Assembly (NCBI GenBank): GCA_963822075.1
Contig: CAWGGP010000009.1
Coordinates: forward strand, 72,507 to 136,506
DNA from: Candidatus Aminicenantes bacterium
GTDB taxonomy: Bacteria; Acidobacteriota; Aminicenantia; UBA2199
Direction of reading: 5' to 3'
DNA: 64,000 bases
Part shown: piece after piece, positions 991 through 57,530 of the stretch
How positions within the stretch are numbered: position 1 is the stretch's first letter
Layout: each line of letters begins with the position of its first letter
Position numbers and translations under genes: made by a program
Notes under the pieces: generated by a model
Told to the model about the DNA's origin: nothing
The model's input: the letters and a program-made list of their open reading frames with translations, nothing else
Database searches by the model: none

Positions 991-1840
991 TCAGGCCCGG
1001 CGCTGCCGGGAGTTCATGGCCAGCCCGGCGAGGATGAGCGCTCCGCCCAGGCCCAGGCGCAGGAGGTCGGTCCGCTCCCCGAAAAAAACGAGGGAAACCA
1101 GTATCGCCAGCGGGATCTTGACGTTGTTGAAAACGGCGAGCATGCCGGGGGAGACGCTCAAGGCGCCGACGTTCCACAGGAAAAATCCCACGCCCGAAGC
1201 CAGCAGGCCGAGGTACGCCAGGACCAGCCACTGTCCCGCGTCCAGGTCCAGGCGCGGCGGCCCCGAAAACAGGAGCATGGCCAGGGCGGCGGCGGCCGCC
1301 CCGCCCAGGTAGAGCCAGGCGAACGCATCGCGGTCCTTCCACCCCCTGCCCGGCGGCGCCAGGCGCCGGTACAGGAGTTGGCCCAGGGCGAAGCACAGGT
1401 TGGAAGCCTGCACCAGCAGGAAACCGGCGAGCAGGCCGGAGCGGCCGATCCCGGAATAGACGATCACGGCGCTGCCGCCGACGGCCAGGAGGGCCGTCCA
1501 GCAATGGAGCGGCCGGAAGCGCCCCTCCAGGAGGCCGGCGGCCGCCGCCACGTAAAGGGGGGTGAGAATGGTGAAAAGGGCGACCTGGTGGGCGGCGAGG
1601 TAGCGGAAGGATTGGATATAAAAGACATACATCAGCCCGAACTGCACCGCCCCCAAGGCCAGCAGGCGCGCGGTGAGCGAGGGCGGGATCTTCCGCGGCC
1701 GGAGCAGGGGCAGGAAAAGCAGGAAGGAAAGGGCCAGGCGAACGAAGGCCACCAGGCCGGCGTCAAGGCCGCCGAGATATTTCTTGATCAGGCCGAACGA
1801 AAAGGCCCAGATGAACGGAAGCGATCAGCAGCAGAATCAT
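991..1840 (-). CDS. EamA/DMT-family transporter (frameshifted near its 5' end as assembled)
   Basis: ORF 991..1752 (253 aa) is uniformly hydrophobic with EamA-type repeats (..LASGVGFFLWNVGALSVSPGMLAVFNNVKIPLAILVSLVFFGE..). ATG 1840 gives MILLLIAS. The adjacent frame continues FIWAFSFGLIKKYLGGLDAGLVAFVRLALS into the ORF, so one indel near 1815 splits the N-terminus. Confidence 0.75.
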
Positions 1841-1903
1841 GGGCCGACTATAACAGATTAAGCGATTTTTGCAAAAAAAGACAAAATGCATTCTATTGCC
1901 CGA

Positions 1904-2600
1904 TCTCGGTCAATTGCCTTCTCCCCTTTTACCCAAGGGGGACACAGGGGGGATCTGCATATCGCATGAACTTGAAATATCGCAGATCTCCTTATCCCCC
2001 CGGCTTCGCCACCCCCCTTATGCAAAGGGGGTAAAGATAGAAGCGACATACGAAATTGAGTCTCGGTCAATTGCCTTCTCTCCCCCCTTACCCAAGGGGG
2101 GACACAGGGGGGATTTCATATCGCATGACTTGAATTCGCACCATACTCCAGGATTCTTCATTCCTTTCAGGGGGTGAAGGCACGAGTCGATAGCTCCTAT
2201 CTTTCAGCAAGGGGGACAGGGGGGATATTTTAGCGATGAAGTTGAAATATCGCAAGATCTACAATGAAACGCCCGGCTAGTACGCCAACCCCCCCTTTGT
2301 GCAACAGGGGCGTAAAGATAAAAGCGACATACGAACATTAGGAGTCTCGGTCAATATGCCGCTTCTCCCCCTTTACCCAAGGGGGGACACAGGGGGGATC
2401 TGCATCTCGCCGGAGAACTCGGAATATCTAAGATCGATATCTATTATCCCCCCGGCTTCGCCACCCCCCTTAAGCAAAGGGGGTAAAGATAGAAGCGACT
2501 ATACGAAATTAATTGCGTATCTCGGTCATTTGCCTTCTCCCCCCTTACCCAAGGGGGGGAAGGGGGGATTTGCATATCGTATGAACTTGAAATATCGCCA
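1904..2600. repeat. tandem array of a ~157-175-bp G/C-tract hairpin unit (unit starts at 1904, 2061, 2345, 2520; five copies of the core, one truncated and one diverged)
   Basis: The unit start TCTCGGTCA..TGCC recurs at 1904, 2061, 2345 and 2520. The core TCCCC(C)TT-(t)taccc-AAGGGGG-ACACA-GGGGGGAT is at 1922-1954, 2081-2114, 2366-2399 and 2538-2569, with a diverged copy at 2209-2226. The second half ATCCCCCCGGCTTCGCCACCCCCCTTA.GCAAAGGGGGTAAAGATAGAAGCGAC is at 1994-2047 and 2446-2499, diverged at 2284-2328. The track ORFs here (1869..2177+, 2299..2667+, 1858..2070-) are only translations of the repeat. Confidence 0.85.
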
Positions 2601-2629
2601 ATGCCTCCGGCCGGCGATTTCCCGCATAT

Positions 2630-2658
2630 TTGAAAACCGCGACAAACAGTGCTATAAT
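2630..2658 (+). promoter_or_regulatory. sigma70-type promoter candidate for the aminotransferase gene
   Basis: TTGAAA (2630-2635), a 17-nt spacer, then TATAAT (2653-2658). This leaves a ~150-nt leader before GTG 2819. Confidence 0.45.
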
Positions 2659-2818
2659 ATGACCTGATGGTTGTAAAGCAAGATCATCTTCCGGTTCAAG
2701 ATCATTTGATAATCCACGCTGCTTTTGCATCCGCGGGCAAATCTTGTCTCACTTTTAAATCCAGGGATTTATTTCACTTTAAATAGATTTTTCCTTTACC
2801 ATCCACAAGGAGGATGCC

Positions 2819-4053
2819 GTGGTCAACTACGATCAATTCTATTCCAATAACGCCAAGGGCATGAAGCGCTCGGAGATCCGCGAGCTGCTGAAGCTCACCG
2901 CCCGGCCGGGGATCATCTCCTTCGCCGGCGGCCTGCCCGCCCCCGACCTCTTTCCCGTCGACGACATCAAGGAGATGTCGCGCATCGTCATGGAGCGGGA
3001 GGGAAAGACCGCCCTGCAATACGGCCCCACCGAGGGGGACAACCGCCTGCGCGAGGAGCTGGCCAGGCTGATGCAGAAGGACGGCGTGAACATCACCAGC
3101 AATCACCTGCTGATCGTCACGTCGTCGCAGCAGGGACTCGACCTGGTGGGCAAGATATTCATCGATGCGGGCGACGTGGTCATGACCAGCCGCCCCACCT
3201 ACGTCGGCGCCATCCAGGCCTTCAACTCCTACGGGGCCAAGATGCTGGGCGTCGAACAGGACGATGAAGGCACGCAGACCGCCCTGCTGGAGGCGGAGAT
3301 CGAAAAGCTGGCCGCCAAGGGCAGCAAGCCGAAATTCATCTACGAGATCCCCGATTTCCAGAACCCGTCGGGCATCACCATGAGCCTGAAAAGGCGGAAG
3401 GAGCTCATCCGCATCGCTGAAAAGCACGACCTGGTCATCGTCGAGGACTCCCCCTATCGCCAGCTGCGCTTCGAGGGCAAGACCGAGCCGTCGCTGATCG
3501 GCATGAACTCGGAGCGCGTCCTGTCGCTCTTCACCTTCAGCAAGATCCTGCTGCCGGGCTTCAGGCTGGGCTGGATGGCCGGCCCCAATGAGCTGATCCA
3601 GAAGGCGGTGACGGCCAAGCAGTCGGTCGACCTGTGCTCCCCCCCTTCAACCAGGCCATTCTTTATGAGTACCTGCACCGCGGCCTGCTGGAAAAGCAGA
3701 TCACCGTGATCATCAAGGCCTACCGGGAGAAGCGCGACTTCATGCTGGCCAAGCTCTCCCAGTACATGCCCAAGCTGCCGGGGTTGAAGTGGACCCATCC
3801 CCAGGGCGGGCTGTTCCTGTGGGTCACCATGCCCGAAAGCATCGATGCCGGGGAATTGTTCCACAGCGCCATCGAAAAACAGGTGGCCTACGTCGTCGGA
3901 ACGGCTTTCTTCCCCGACGGCGGGGGACACAATTCCTTCCGCATGAATTTCTCCTATTCCAGCATGGCCGAGATCGAGGAAGGGGTCAAGCGCCTCGCCG
4001 ACGTCATCCGCAACTGGAAGGGCCGCGAGGATTCTTCGATCATCACGCCGTGA
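2819..4053 (+). CDS. PLP-dependent aminotransferase, class I/II (2-aminoadipate/aromatic aminotransferase-like); frameshifted as assembled
   Basis: ORFs 2819..3709 and 3634..4053 are two halves of one enzyme (..LFTFSKILLPGFRLGWMAGP.. with the SK PLP-lysine context; ..KQSVDLCSPP | FNQAILYEYL..). The frames switch inside a C7 run near 3640-3650. GTG 2819 follows AAGGAGG. Confidence 0.85.
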
Positions 4054-4122: not shown

Positions 4123-5458
4123 TCAGTTCTCGGATACTTTAAAAGGGACCCAGGCGACGGGAGAGCCGCCGTTTTCGAACCAATCCGCCCCCTCGCTGAC
4201 CATGTCGAATTTCAGCCAGAAATCGCCGCGGCGGTGGACGGCGGGCAGCTCGATCTCCACCGTGGCGCCGTCCCCGGCGCCCAGGGGACGCGGCAGAAAA
4301 GCCCGGGCGTAATTCAATTCCAGCAGCCTCTTTTCGGCGTCGTGAAGCTGGGCGCCCAGCCTCACCCAGCGCCGCCCGGAAAAGGCCTGGGTTATCCAGG
4401 GTGCGCCGCCGCGGTTTTTCACCGCCACGCCCAGGACAAGCGTTTGACCCGGCTGGGCGGCCAGGCGCTTCTCCCCCACCTTGATCCCGGCGATATACCG
4501 TTTGCCCCGGAGGGCGGAGCCGATCTGGCTGGTGTCCCAGATCTGGTAAAAAATCCTTTTCCAGGCCGGGCTCCCGACCTGGTATTTCTTTGACGCCGCG
4601 GCGGCGGGGTGATCGGTGATCTCCCAGGTCAGGCGGTCGACGCCGATCTTTTTTGCCAGGCGCCGGGCCTTGGCCATGTGCCGGAACGAATCGTTCCAAC
4701 GGAACAGGATGTAGCGCCAGTTGATGAAGGGCACTTCCCGGCCCAGGCGTCGCTTCTCCCCGACCAGGGCCGCCATGTTTTTCAGCAGTTTGGCGAAATC
4801 GCCGCCCTGGCGGTAGCGGGCATACGTGCGCGGATCGGCGCCGTCGACCGAGAACGTGATCTCGTCGACCCCGGACTCCGCCAGCCGGGCGGCTTTTCCG
4901 GCGTCGAGCAGCAGGCCGTTGGTGCTGACATACAAAAACACATGGGGATATTTTTTCTTCACGTGCTCGATCATGTCCAGCGCCTGGGGGTGAGCGAACG
5001 GTTCGCCGTAGTTGAAAAAATCGAGGCGGATCAGCCCGGGGCCGATCTCCTCCAGCAGGGAGCGGAATTCCTCCTGGGGGAAAAACTTCCGTTCCCGGGT
5101 GGCGGCAAGGCCGGCCCCCGGGGCGCAGACGGCCTGAAAGCAATTCAAGTTGCAAATGACCGTGGGTTCAAAAAAGATCCGCGGCAGGATTTCCAGGTCG
5201 ACCGGCCGCTGCGGCACCGCCTCGCCTTCGCGCCAGGGGTTTCTTCAACCCGCAGTCGCGGCAAAACCCGGAAAACCCTTCGTTCAGCTCCTGCCTGATC
5301 CGCCGCACCTTGGCGCCGCGCCAGATCTCGTTCAGGCTGGATTCGCGCAAATGTCCCAGCGGCCTTTCGCCCCGGGGATCGGCGCAGCCGCAGACGACTT
5401 TGCCGTCACAAAGCACCACCAGGATATTGAAGATCCAGTCGCAGGTAAAGCGCGTCAC
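4123..5458 (-). CDS. radical SAM enzyme with an N-terminal SPASM/twitch-like Cys-rich domain and a C-terminal beta-rich domain; frameshifted as assembled
   Basis: ORF 5168..5458 (..LCDGKVVCGCADPRGERPLGHLRESSLNEIWRGAKVRRIRQELNEGFSGFCRDCGLKKP) resembles a SPASM auxiliary-cluster module. ORF 4123..5217 carries the radical SAM core (FFEPTVICNLNCFQAVC..., FFNYGEPF, STNGLLL, ITFSVDG). The junction lies at AAACCCC near 5225. The start abuts the mglA stop (5459). Confidence 0.7.
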
Positions 5459-9179: not shown

Positions 9180-9198
9180 TTTATGTTCTCATTTAAAA

Positions 9199-9296
9199 GG
9201 CTCAGGAAATCCCGAACACCTGCGAAATTCTACTTATTGCTGCTACCTTTCGGTCCTGGCAAGGTTCATAGGTTCGCACCGCCGGGCTCCTGAGCC
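9199..9296 (-). ncRNA. ffs: signal recognition particle RNA (small bacterial 4.5S type)
   Basis: The reverse strand reads GGCTCAGGAGCCCGGCGGTGCGAACCTATGAACCTTGCCAGGACCGAAAGGTAGCAGCAATAAGTAGAATTTCGCAGGTGTTCGGGATTTCCTGAGCC. The ends pair (GGCTCAGGA/TCCTGAGCC). It contains the domain IV signature CCAGGaCCGaAAGGtAGCAGC with a GNRA loop. The position just upstream of dnaX is common in bacteria. Confidence 0.8.
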
Positions 9297-9345
9297 TTTT
9301 TTCCATTTTTACGGGGCCTTCCGGCCCCAGGGAAACAGGCATCAT

Positions 9346-9432
<87 letters not shown>

Positions 9433-9445
9433 AGACAAGAAGCTC

Positions 9446-17769: not shown

Positions 17770-17845
17770 TGGCTCCTCAGGAGGGACTTGAACCCCCAAC
17801 CTAATGGTTAACAGCCATCCGCTCTGCCGATTGAGCTACTGAGGA
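17770..17845 (-). tRNA. tRNA-Asn (anticodon GUU)
   Basis: The reverse strand reads TCCTCAGTAGCTCAATCGGCAGAGCGGATGGCTGTTAACCATTAGGTTGGGGGTTCAAGTCCCTCCTGAGGAGCCA. The anticodon loop is CTGTTAA and CCA is encoded. Confidence 0.9.
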
Positions 17846-19485: not shown

Positions 19486-22120
<2,635 letters not shown>

Positions 22121-53712: not shown

Positions 53713-55007
53713 TCACTCCTGCGGCTTCAGCGGCGCGGCGCCGGGCGCGGTCCCCTTGGGGGACCAGCGTCCCGACCCGGGCGCGGTCTCCTTGGGGGAA
53801 AGGGAGAAATTTTTCAGGGCCAGGGCGGCGATGGATTCGCCGATGCTGATCGAAGCCGTGGCGGCCGGCGACGGGGCGTTCAGCACGTGGACCATGCGCT
53901 CGGCTTCGCGGATGCGGAAATCGTCGACCAGGAAACCGTTGGCCTCCAGCGCCTGGGCGCGGACGCCGGCGCCGCCGGGCGACCAGGTCGCCGGCCTGGA
54001 TCTCGGGGACCAGCCGCTGCAGCGCCCGGACAAACGCCTTCTTGGAAAAGGAACGGTAGAATTCGCCGAGGCCCATTTTCCAGAATTTCAGGCCCATGGC
54101 CCAGAACCCCGGGTACAGGGCGAATTGGGCGGCGTCGCGCAGGGAAAAGCTGGTCTTGGTGTAGCCGTGGCGCTTGAAGGCCAGGACGGCGTTGGGGCCG
54201 GCTTCGACGCCGCCGGCGATCATGCGCGTGAAATGCACGCCCAGGAAGGGGAACTGCGGGTCGGGGACCGGGTAGATCAGGTTGCGCACCAGGTCGCGGC
54301 GCCCGGGGACCAGTTCGTAGTATTCGCCGCGGAAAGGGATGATCTGCAAGCCGGGCTTGACGCCGCACAGGCGGGCGACGCGGTCGGACTGCAGGCCGGC
54401 GCAGTTGACCAGGTTGCGGCAGCGTACGTCGCCGTTCCGGTCGGAAAGGATCAGCTCCCGGCCGTCCTTTTTCACCCGCCGCACCTGGAAATTCAAGCGG
54501 ATCTCGCCGCCGCCGGCGCGGATGATCCGCGGCGTATTTCTCGCATACCTGGCGGTAATCGACGATGCCCGTCTCCCCCACCCAAAGCCCGGCGATGCCG
54601 GCGACGTGCGGCTCGAATTCCTTCAGCTCCTCCGCGCCGAGGCGGCGCAGCTTTTTCAGGCCGTTCGCCGCCCCTTTCTTTTCCAGTTCGTCCAGGGCGG
54701 CGATCTCGCCCGGCGTGGTCGCCACCACCAGCTTGCCGCAGGCCTGGTGGGCGATCCCCTGCTCACGGCAGAAGCGGTACAGGGCTTCGCGGCCGGCGAC
54801 GCAGTTCCTGGCCTTCAGCGAACCCGGCTTGTAATAGAGCCCGGAATGGATCACGCCGCTGTTGTTGCCGGTCTGGTGGGCGGCCAGCTGGCCTTCGGCC
54901 TCGAGCACGGCGATGGAGTTCACCCCGGACTTGACCAGGGCCATCGCCGTCGCCAAACCGACGATGCCGCCGCCGATGATGCCCACGTCGTAAATGCGCT
55001 CGCCCAT
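53713..55007 (-). CDS. lhgO: L-2-hydroxyglutarate oxidase/dehydrogenase-type FAD oxidoreductase; frameshifted as assembled
   Basis: ATG 55007 follows GGAGGGA and gives [24 protein letters not shown] (dinucleotide fold). It also has ..[23 protein letters not shown].., ..[11 protein letters not shown].., ..IIPFRGEYY.. and ..[19 protein letters not shown]... Indels lie near 54540 and 53990. The last ~25 codons as read translate a REP-like repeat and are doubtful. Confidence 0.8.
53728..53800. repeat. REP-like hairpin repeat, two 37-bp-period units (same family as 57446-57530)
   Basis: CAGCG starts units at 53728 and 53765. Each unit contains CGGGCGCGGTC(C/T)CC-TTG-GGGGA(C/A), a 6-7-bp stem with loop TTG. 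Confidence 0.7.
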
Positions 55008-57417: not shown

Positions 57418-57445
57418 GCGGGCCTACGCCTTTCGCGTGCCGGGA

Positions 57446-57530
57446 TCAGCGTCCCGGAATCGGGCGCGACCCCCTTGGGGGGTCAGCGTCCCGGAATCGG
57501 GCGCGACCCCCTTGGGGGGTCAGCGATTCC
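57446..57530. repeat. REP-like hairpin repeat, two full 37-bp units plus a partial third, between convergent genes
   Basis: TCAGCGTCCCGGAATCGGGCGCGACCCCCTTGGGGGG is present at 57446 and 57483, and a partial unit begins at 57520. Each unit holds GACCCCC-TTG-GGGGGTC (a perfect 7-bp stem). It probably also acts as a bidirectional terminator for uppP and the AMP-ligase gene. Confidence 0.8.

Follow-up and report, generated by a model that had tools for sequence, protein, structure and literature searches.

A cluster of REP-like palindromic units between two divergent genes of a Candidatus Aminicenantes bacterium, and a putative partnership of such repeats with DUF559 nucleases

In a stretch of 64,000 nucleotides from contig CAWGGP010000009.1 of a Candidatus Aminicenantes bacterium (the whole stretch is called the window below), an array of repeats occupies positions 1895-2600, inside the gap between two divergent genes that encode an EamA-family transporter (start at 1840, minus strand) and a class I/II aminotransferase (start at 2819, plus strand). 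This array is a cluster of palindromic units (PUs) that resemble repetitive extragenic palindromic (REP) sequences and are arranged as in a bacterial interspersed mosaic element (BIME). The PU family is dispersed extragenic DNA of Aminicenantes/Acidobacteria-type genomes, which holds orthologous positions and shows fast turnover of copy number, and in related genomes a gene for a DUF559 protein lies among the repeats. It is probable, in our view, that the array is best explained as a BIME-like PU cluster that belongs to this dispersed family, has grown by local tandem events, and is composed of sites for the DUF559 nuclease with which the family is associated.

The boundaries of the repeat follow from an alignment of 22 copies together with their flanks, in which the linkers between elements are conserved across loci. 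Stand-alone copies outside the window run ATCCCCCC...GGGGGGAT over 83-145 nt, and in 44 distinct full elements of this length range the ends are conserved and the middle is hypervariable. Each element consists of two similar PUs in inverted orientation, a type-B unit on the minus strand and a type-D unit on the plus strand, reading ATC6...G6AT as a whole. The PU is built from a hairpin (C5-7TT, a loop of 3-5 nt, AAG5-7), a short spacer and a GGGGGGAT tag, which is present, as GGGGGGAT or ATCCCCCC, in all copies. In the type-D PU, at the 3' end of the element, the loop is ACCC and the spacer has 5 nt, while the type-B PU, at the 5' end on the opposite strand, has a variable loop and a 10-nt spacer, TGGCGMAGCC. 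Counting the window and the 55 other loci described below (designated by L numbers), 150 PUs of 28-39 nt were found, all of which are intergenic or have been read as spurious open reading frames (ORFs). Elements follow one another head to tail with linkers of ~40 nt between them, such that PU orientation alternates as D+ B- D+ B- within arrays (window, L003, L010, L013, L046, L051); single PUs and half elements are common. A single element is predicted to fold into a closed three-hairpin multiloop, and its minimum-free-energy structure on the minus strand is one long hairpin joining both PUs (z -3.2 to -5.2).

This anatomy revises a preliminary description of the array, made from the letters of the window alone, which had set the unit in a different phase from that of the stand-alone copies. 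Its 'long-range pairing' between G6AT and ATC6 is the junction of adjacent elements, since stand-alone copies begin with ATC6 and end in G6AT, and the 25-45 nt said to be enclosed by that pairing are the linker between two elements. The GATCTGC/GCAGATC pairing, which had been attributed to each unit, is found in unit 1 only. With these boundaries, the array is made up of the following parts:

1895-1975, plus strand: 3' half of an element, with middle segment, type-D PU and right end ...ATATCG (nhmmer model positions 80-154, E = 3.7e-17; PU regular expression)
1923-1954, plus strand: type-D PU of this half element, CCCCTTT-TACCC-AAGGGGG-ACACA-GGGGGGAT (PU regular expression)
1955-1993, plus strand: linker 1 (CTGCATATCGCATGAACTTGAAATATCGCAGATCTCCTT), the interior of the former 'long-range stem', homologous to the other linkers and to the right flank of the array
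1994-2114, plus strand: complete element 1, ATC6...G6AT (nhmmer E = 6.1e-46; PU regular expression), composed of a type-B PU at 1994-2031 (minus strand: hairpin-TGGCGAAGCC-G6AT), a variable middle at 2032-2081 and a type-D PU at 2082-2114
2115-2207, plus strand: irregular segment, a truncated linker to ~2139 and then sequence unmatched in the other units
2208-2226, plus strand: degenerate type-D PU (CAAGGGGGACAGGGGGGAT), its C-rich arm lost
2264-2399, plus strand: diverged element 2 (nhmmer match 2270-2410, E = 1.1e-24; PU regular expression), composed of a degenerate type-B PU at ~2264-2312, in which ATGAAACGCCC replaces ATC6, a middle segment and an intact type-D PU at 2367-2399
2400-2445, plus strand: linker 3, a diverged copy of linker 1
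2446-2569, plus strand: complete element 3 (nhmmer E = 1.3e-45; PU regular expression), composed of a type-B PU at 2446-2483 (minus-strand reading), a middle and a type-D PU at 2539-2569
2570-2600, plus strand: right end and flank (TTGCATATCGTATGAACTTGAAATATCGCC), with homology to the linkers inside the array

The head-to-tail copies of the preliminary description were recovered at the same starts, 1904, 2061, ~2190 (the diverged copy), 2345 and 2520: a profile built from two units matched 1904-2059, 2061-2179, 2200-2337, 2345-2518 and 2520-2601 in nhmmer (E 1e-14 to 1e-62), and the re-phased copies were matched at E 6e-46, 1e-24 and 1e-45. A strict regular expression for the PU finds six units in the 700-bp array and none in the remaining 63 kb of the window, where blastn-short likewise found no further copy of the repeat unit. 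Tandem Repeats Finder did not report the array, owing to its irregular period. The closed three-hairpin fold has z = -3.3 as RNA and -4.6 as DNA in element 1, and for the fold of element 3 the z values are -3.5 (plus strand) and -5.2 (minus strand); the sequence also suggests potential for G-quadruplex and i-motif formation. It had been stated that the gap lacks a credible ORF, and this holds, as its ORFs of 100-122 aa are read-throughs of the repeat. It is a recurring annotation artefact that gene callers translate PUs, giving spurious peptides or N-terminal extensions such as SPLAPLYKGGG and LPKGGHRGD (L064, 2501-2614, and the window ORFs at 1869-2177 and 2299-2667).

Scanning one genome per species for the exact pattern returned 18 loci, and a metagenome scan added 37, giving the total of 55. 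The metagenome-assembled genome (MAG) KR13_N1.mb.47, in which L010 is the syntenic EamA/aminotransferase locus, holds at least 11 exact-pattern copies over at least seven contigs. Non-orthologous sites in Aminicenantes/Acidobacteria-type genomes include the gap between the PFK and DUF374 genes, a thioredoxin locus, a mutM locus and others, and the copies occur in either orientation relative to the neighbouring genes. The spread across phyla among the first 18 genome matches is mostly a matter of labelling, as the MAGs named Aminicenantes, Acidobacteria and Chrysiogenia have common syntenic flanks. Among the four roles proposed in the preliminary description, the evidence favours 'REP/BIME-like element'. 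That same description had named genome-wide scatter as the outcome that would count against a structured RNA or a regulatory array, two further roles on its list, and with the unit on at least seven contigs of one related MAG and at several unrelated loci these two fail on its own terms.

In the EamA/aminotransferase gap itself, between one and five elements are present in the 12 related loci sampled, and the closest relative sampled (L053, 95.7% amino acid identity in the aminotransferase) has ~2.5 shorter units at this position. The elements of the window are 78-88% identical to one another as against 62-76% to those of L010, and the linkers in the window repeat the right flank of the array. 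Because the copies are closer to each other than to those of L010 and the linkers repeat the flank, the array probably grew by local tandem duplication or unequal recombination, and the homology of the internal linkers to the right flank indicates that the duplicated unit included the sequence at 2570-2600. At L005 (6255-7604, an Aminicenantes MAG from LacPavin), a further pair of ORFs separates the aminotransferase gene from the element, and one of the two has a weak, sub-threshold match to DUF4760 (E 2.5e-4, 21.6 bits, cut-off 25). It seems that insertions are frequent in this gap.

One gene recurs among these repeats. A 132-aa ORF inside the array of L010 (2571-2969) encodes a DUF559 protein (Pfam PF04480, E = 7.8e-27; related to PDB 3HRL, E = 1e-13). 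Besides L010/L021, the gene recurs, always intact and at 69-95% identity, within the arrays of L006, L014, L024, L029, L030, L039 and L040. In all of these array-embedded cases a copy of the type-D PU stands on each side of the gene, the two in direct orientation. The loci with a DUF559 gene in the array comprise at least three to four that are non-orthologous: L010/L021, L013+L014, L024, L029 and L040 represent the syntenic EamA locus, and L006, L030 and L039 lie elsewhere. Over the 55 loci, the DUF559 gene is the only recurrent non-syntenic neighbour of the elements.

The association extends to distant taxa. Eight DUF559 homologues with 55-67% identity were found in other lineages (Chloroflexi, a Chloroherpetonaceae MAG, Calothrix, a Gloeocapsa-like cyanobacterium and others), and all eight, one of them weakly, have C5-6TT..AAG5-6 hairpins and G5-6AT/ATC5-6 tags within ~300 nt; elsewhere in these 5.4-kb loci there are no such units, except for three detector hits each in L063 and L064. 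In the Chloroherpetonaceae MAG (GCA_046719425.1; L061/L062, 2501-2902), the DUF559 gene and its PUs interrupt a type I-C CRISPR-Cas operon, between cas7 and cas5d, an odd position for a housekeeping gene that fits a selfish insertion. Further family members, resembling E. coli YcjD, were taken from PLSDB (Azospirillum, Picosynechococcus, N. gonorrhoeae, Deinococcus, S. meliloti, Klebsiella, Pseudanabaena, Photobacterium), and at each of the eight loci a lineage-specific hairpin-(T/C)TA-G tail adjoins the gene, often on both sides. With a generic detector, the motif was found within 300 nt in 20 of 21 DUF559 loci, at a density of 5.23 per kb near the gene, 0.30 per kb farther off and 0.032 per kb over the part of the window that lies outside the array. 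The build common to this proposed grouping is a C-rich arm, a loop, a G-rich arm, a spacer of 1-10 nt (often TTA) and a G-rich tail, with a C-rich head upstream to which the tail is complementary; it is seen in 17 other taxa, and the PUs of the window fit it too. In every lineage sampled, 21 loci in all with E. coli ycjD among them, such repeats stand no more than ~300 nt from the DUF559 gene. DUF559 genes and repeats with a hairpin, a short spacer and a G-rich tail are positionally associated across phyla.

The E. coli member of the family has a similar neighbourhood. The sequence after ycjD contains ccctcgcccctctggggagagggTTAgggtgagggg and repeats part of the 3' end of the gene itself; in the ycjD-fabI gap of E. 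coli K-12 (L056, 5150-5420), a partial copy of the last ~60 nt of ycjD (ggagacggtgctggagaatattc...) is followed by a dispersed G/C-rich palindrome, an arrangement that looks like the footprint of an earlier insertion or conversion event. The repeat adjoining ycjD occurs at a median of 16 places per E. coli genome, and it is probably Box C. Box C was reportedly discovered and named beside envM/fabI, by Bergler et al. in 1992. In K-12 records it is 56 bp long with 33 annotated copies (PMC5172473, table 1). A search of open-access papers found none that link DUF559 or ycjD to repeats.

A generalised form of the unit, C6TTNNNNAAG6-N1-6-G6AT, was also observed in 18 viral contigs of IMG/VR with 47-67% G+C (L067-L084), where it lies in short gaps between phage-like genes and has the consensus C6TTTGCAAAG6-TTA-G6ATTT. 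Because of its presence in these contigs, the PU motif is far wider than the Aminicenantes lineage.

By analogy with the REP-associated tyrosine transposase (RAYT) and its REP or REPIN (REP doublet forming a hairpin) sequences, the PU may be the DNA site recognised by the DUF559 nuclease, a Vsr-like enzyme of the PD-(D/E)xK type. The two would then form a two-component system, selfish or semi-domesticated, in which nicking or cutting at PUs could lead to gene conversion and to homing of the nuclease gene into PU sites, and could equally promote the unequal recombination by which arrays expand and contract. What suggests a trans-acting partner travelling with the repeats is that it would be the only explanation for non-coding sequence of fixed architecture remaining beside a gene whose identity has fallen to 40-60%, among hosts with G+C contents of 47-67%. 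A Caulobacter DUF559 protein has been found to cause DNA damage in vivo (PMC12907096).

Several observations weigh against this interpretation. The association of DUF559 genes with PUs is, as read from sequence, a positional one, and the PUs could depend on another factor, with DUF559 genes merely preferring to land or to survive in such repeats. PUs are far commoner than the DUF559 gene; none of the 18 IMG/VR contigs that carry a PU has a DUF559 gene near it, and no such gene or remnant was found in the window by tblastn or by hmmsearch with --max. The orientation of the gene relative to the elements varies between subfamilies (L010 as compared with L030/L057). The window has a single element locus in its 64 kb, and PUs hold orthologous positions across genomes, which implies low present-day mobility. 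The conservation of the type-D PU is in part a matter of ascertainment, as the scan pattern was derived from it; this pattern contained neither the type-B PU nor ATC6. The array of the window is best seen as a partner-less, non-autonomous and passive cluster between two divergent promoters, and any effect that it may have on expression of the EamA and aminotransferase genes would be a by-product.

A wider proposal, to which we give somewhat less than even credence, is that extragenic palindromic repeats built from a hairpin, a TTA-like spacer and a G-rich tail form a superfamily not recognised before, with Box C and the G6AT-tagged units of the window as members, and that the DUF559 family including YcjD of E. 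coli supplies its cognate enzymes. It would be a second system of repeat and nuclease, independent of RAYT, and would extend across bacterial phyla and phage genomes, the gene homing into the repeats or being mobilised with them and driving their duplication.

The genes and promoter-like sites on either side of the array bear on the alternatives to a BIME-like cluster. Both gene assignments of the preliminary description agree with the Pfam matches, and the promoter that it placed at 2630-2658 (TTGAAA-N17-TATAAT) is the stronger of two sites:

991-1840, minus strand: EamA-family transporter gene, left flank (Pfam EamA, 5.1e-19; orthologues intact in L010 and L053)
1815-1822, approximately, minus strand: 1-nt indel that places the ~8 N-terminal codons of the EamA gene in a different frame (orthologue comparison)
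1847-1875, minus strand: sigma-70-like promoter site beyond the left edge of the array, for the EamA gene (9 of 12 positions, TG extension; surroundings conserved in L053 and L010)
2630-2658, plus strand: strong sigma-70-like promoter site beyond the right edge of the array, for the aminotransferase gene (11 of 12 positions, TG extension)
2819-4053, plus strand: class I/II aminotransferase gene, right flank (Pfam, 4e-23), in which the frame changes within a C7 run at ~3640

That the array lies exactly between these two divergent promoter-like sites, and that elements are present in the same gap of the 12 related loci, would suit a protein-binding operator or architectural array controlling both genes, and in some elements there is a short perfect palindrome, AGGCAATATTGCCT, of which variants such as AAGCAATATTGCTC appear to be compensated. 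We nevertheless regard such an array as unlikely: the same elements are found among other genes at unrelated loci, this locus can hold anything from one to five units, a nuclease gene can insert among them, the AGGCAAT palindrome is absent from the elements of the window, and no regulator gene is linked to the locus. The units could instead be a tandem family of structured small RNA genes, or a long structured transcript processed into units, as tandem families of small RNAs exist in other bacteria and each element folds stably into the closed multiloop on either strand with highly conserved stem arms. Analysis of the ends of 30 distinct elements over four helices showed 92.5% of cells paired, but no compensatory change was seen at any of the 27 pairs, and shuffled data perform equally well. 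The invariant arms argue neither for nor against pairing, having been kept as sequence, which is compatible with recognition by a protein. No sigma-70 promoter-like site was found in any unit, and no sigma-54 promoter or intrinsic terminator-like site in the intact ones, the only good promoter-like sites being those that flank the array and are directed outward from its edges. No Rfam family matches the array, which the preliminary description likewise could place in no RNA family: at gathering thresholds the whole window gives two tRNAs and the signal recognition particle (SRP) RNA only, and a permissive scan of 1500-3200 gives only noise from microRNA models (E 0.5-9, far below gathering scores). 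The small-RNA role in that description also sits poorly with copies in both orientations relative to neighbouring genes at many unrelated loci, with close relatives that differ in copy number, and with an array that tolerates a protein gene in its midst, and we judge it very improbable.

The inverted 8-bp termini ATCCCCCC/GGGGGGAT, the length of 83-145 nt, the variable middle and the dispersed copies would also be expected of miniature inverted-repeat transposable elements (MITEs), that is, non-autonomous derivatives of an insertion sequence (IS) with a DDE transposase, which had accumulated at one site, and an IS630-like helix-turn-helix ORF is present near one copy in L006. Stand-alone copies, however, show no consistent target-site duplication, and among the 55 loci there is neither a recurrent transposase nor a parent IS, the DUF559 gene being both the sole recurrent non-syntenic neighbour and the sole gene bounded by units; single PUs and half elements are common, and head-to-tail arrays with conserved linkers are BIME-like and not MITE-like. 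A MITE origin is accordingly given little weight. A collapsed or inflated repeat in an indel-prone assembly has the least to recommend it and is highly improbable, even though the assembly appears to be error-prone: frame changes relative to orthologues affect at least four genes of the window, namely EamA (~1815), the aminotransferase (~3640, at the C7 run, where the 423-aa L053 orthologue aligns across two window frames), a radical-SAM gene (~5234-5277) and a PAS-repeat gene (20200-21950). They reflect either an indel-prone assembly with long-read style errors or several pseudogenes. With such frame changes, one of them at a C7 run, the exact lengths of the G and C runs in the array may be unreliable and are not to be taken to the base. 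The units differ by 12-22% and contain unique segments, so that they are distinguishable during assembly, and independent assemblies of relatives show arrays of the same kind at this locus (L010/L021, L013+L014, L029, L040, L053). Two further candidates were discarded. A CRISPR-like array of repeats and spacers was ruled out because the 'spacers', which are the linkers, are homologous to one another. An integron array of attC sites was ruled out as there are no RYYYAAC/GTTRRRY core sites and no integrase, the termini are ATC6/G6AT and the flanking genes are EamA and the aminotransferase.

Other features of the window are recorded here for completeness. A 427-bp tandem repeat at 20274-21914 (3.8 copies, 89% identity) encodes, on the minus strand, near-identical tandem PAS-like domains with frame shifts between the copies. 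A second small G/C-rich palindromic repeat (GACCCCCTTGGGGGGTC-AGCGTCCCGG..GGGCGCG) is present as 2.3 tandem copies of 37 nt at 57442-57525, with a related copy at 53750-53800; it is distinct from the G6AT-tagged family and may be terminator-like. The RNAs found are all on the minus strand: the small SRP RNA at 9197-9295, tRNA-Ser(GGA) at 9345-9433 and tRNA-Asn(GTT) at 17770-17845.

Taken alone, the array is another REP/BIME-like cluster in a poorly studied lineage (Aminicenantes/Acidobacteriota), and the interest lies in the proposed partner enzyme. To our knowledge, a partner enzyme has been identified only for GTAG-tagged REPs, in the form of RAYT, and we know of none for Box C or for many other families of palindromic repeats. 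DUF559 is a very large family of Vsr-like nucleases for which we know of no established function. If the link between the two is functional, it would provide a testable role for a protein of E. coli K-12 and a mechanism for a class of repeats known since 1992. Recognising PU repeats would also improve annotation, by removing spurious peptides of the SPLAPLYKGGG kind.

Among known repeats, MITEs such as the Neisseria Correia element, ERIC/IRU and RUP are alike in being non-coding, intergenic and dispersed, with a length of ~100-150 nt and inverted termini. The family of the window differs from them in that its stand-alone copies have no consistent target-site duplication, no parent with a DDE transposase was found at the 55 loci, and it is made of modular PUs that form head-to-tail arrays and frequent half elements. 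The E. coli repeat that is probably Box C has the same build, with a C-rich head, a hairpin, TTA and a G-rich tail (ccctcgcccctctggggagagggTTAgggtgagggg); it is dispersed and has one copy directly downstream of ycjD, but its arms are CCCTCT/AGAGGG as opposed to C6TT/AAG6, and its copies are mostly single where those of the window family form long arrays.

The family also resembles the REP/BIME of E. coli (Gilson, Bachellier, Hofnung; reviewed in PMC3184786), which are short, G+C-rich, imperfect palindromes, extragenic and dispersed, single or clustered. In their clusters two PU types alternate in orientation and are joined by conserved linker motifs, copy number varies between strains, and the units are not independent genes. 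The present family has the structure by which REP/BIME are defined, without the GTAG tag, and shows neither a consistent target-site duplication nor, at the 55 loci, a transposase parent as expected of MITEs. It is tagged 3' by GGGGGGAT (which on the opposite strand reads as a 5' ATCCCCCC), as opposed to GTAG or CGTC, its arms are homopolymeric (C6/G6) around a long variable middle, its copies number in the tens and not the hundreds (as judged from one MAG), and no RAYT was seen adjoining. In REPIN-RAYT systems (Bertels and Rainey, PMC3116915; Nunvar et al., 2010), a doublet of inverted PUs that forms one long hairpin is mobile or replicating, the unit sequences are specific to the lineage, and a small, usually single-copy gene of nuclease type is flanked by units. 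The family described here shares this arrangement, with the differences that the flanked gene encodes a DUF559 PD-(D/E)xK nuclease instead of an HUH/Y1 tyrosine transposase, that the flanking copies are direct and not inverted, and that the partnership of the enzyme with the repeats is a putative one. Among the element neighbours at the 55 loci no RAYT or other transposase recurs, and it is the DUF559 gene that occupies the analogous position.

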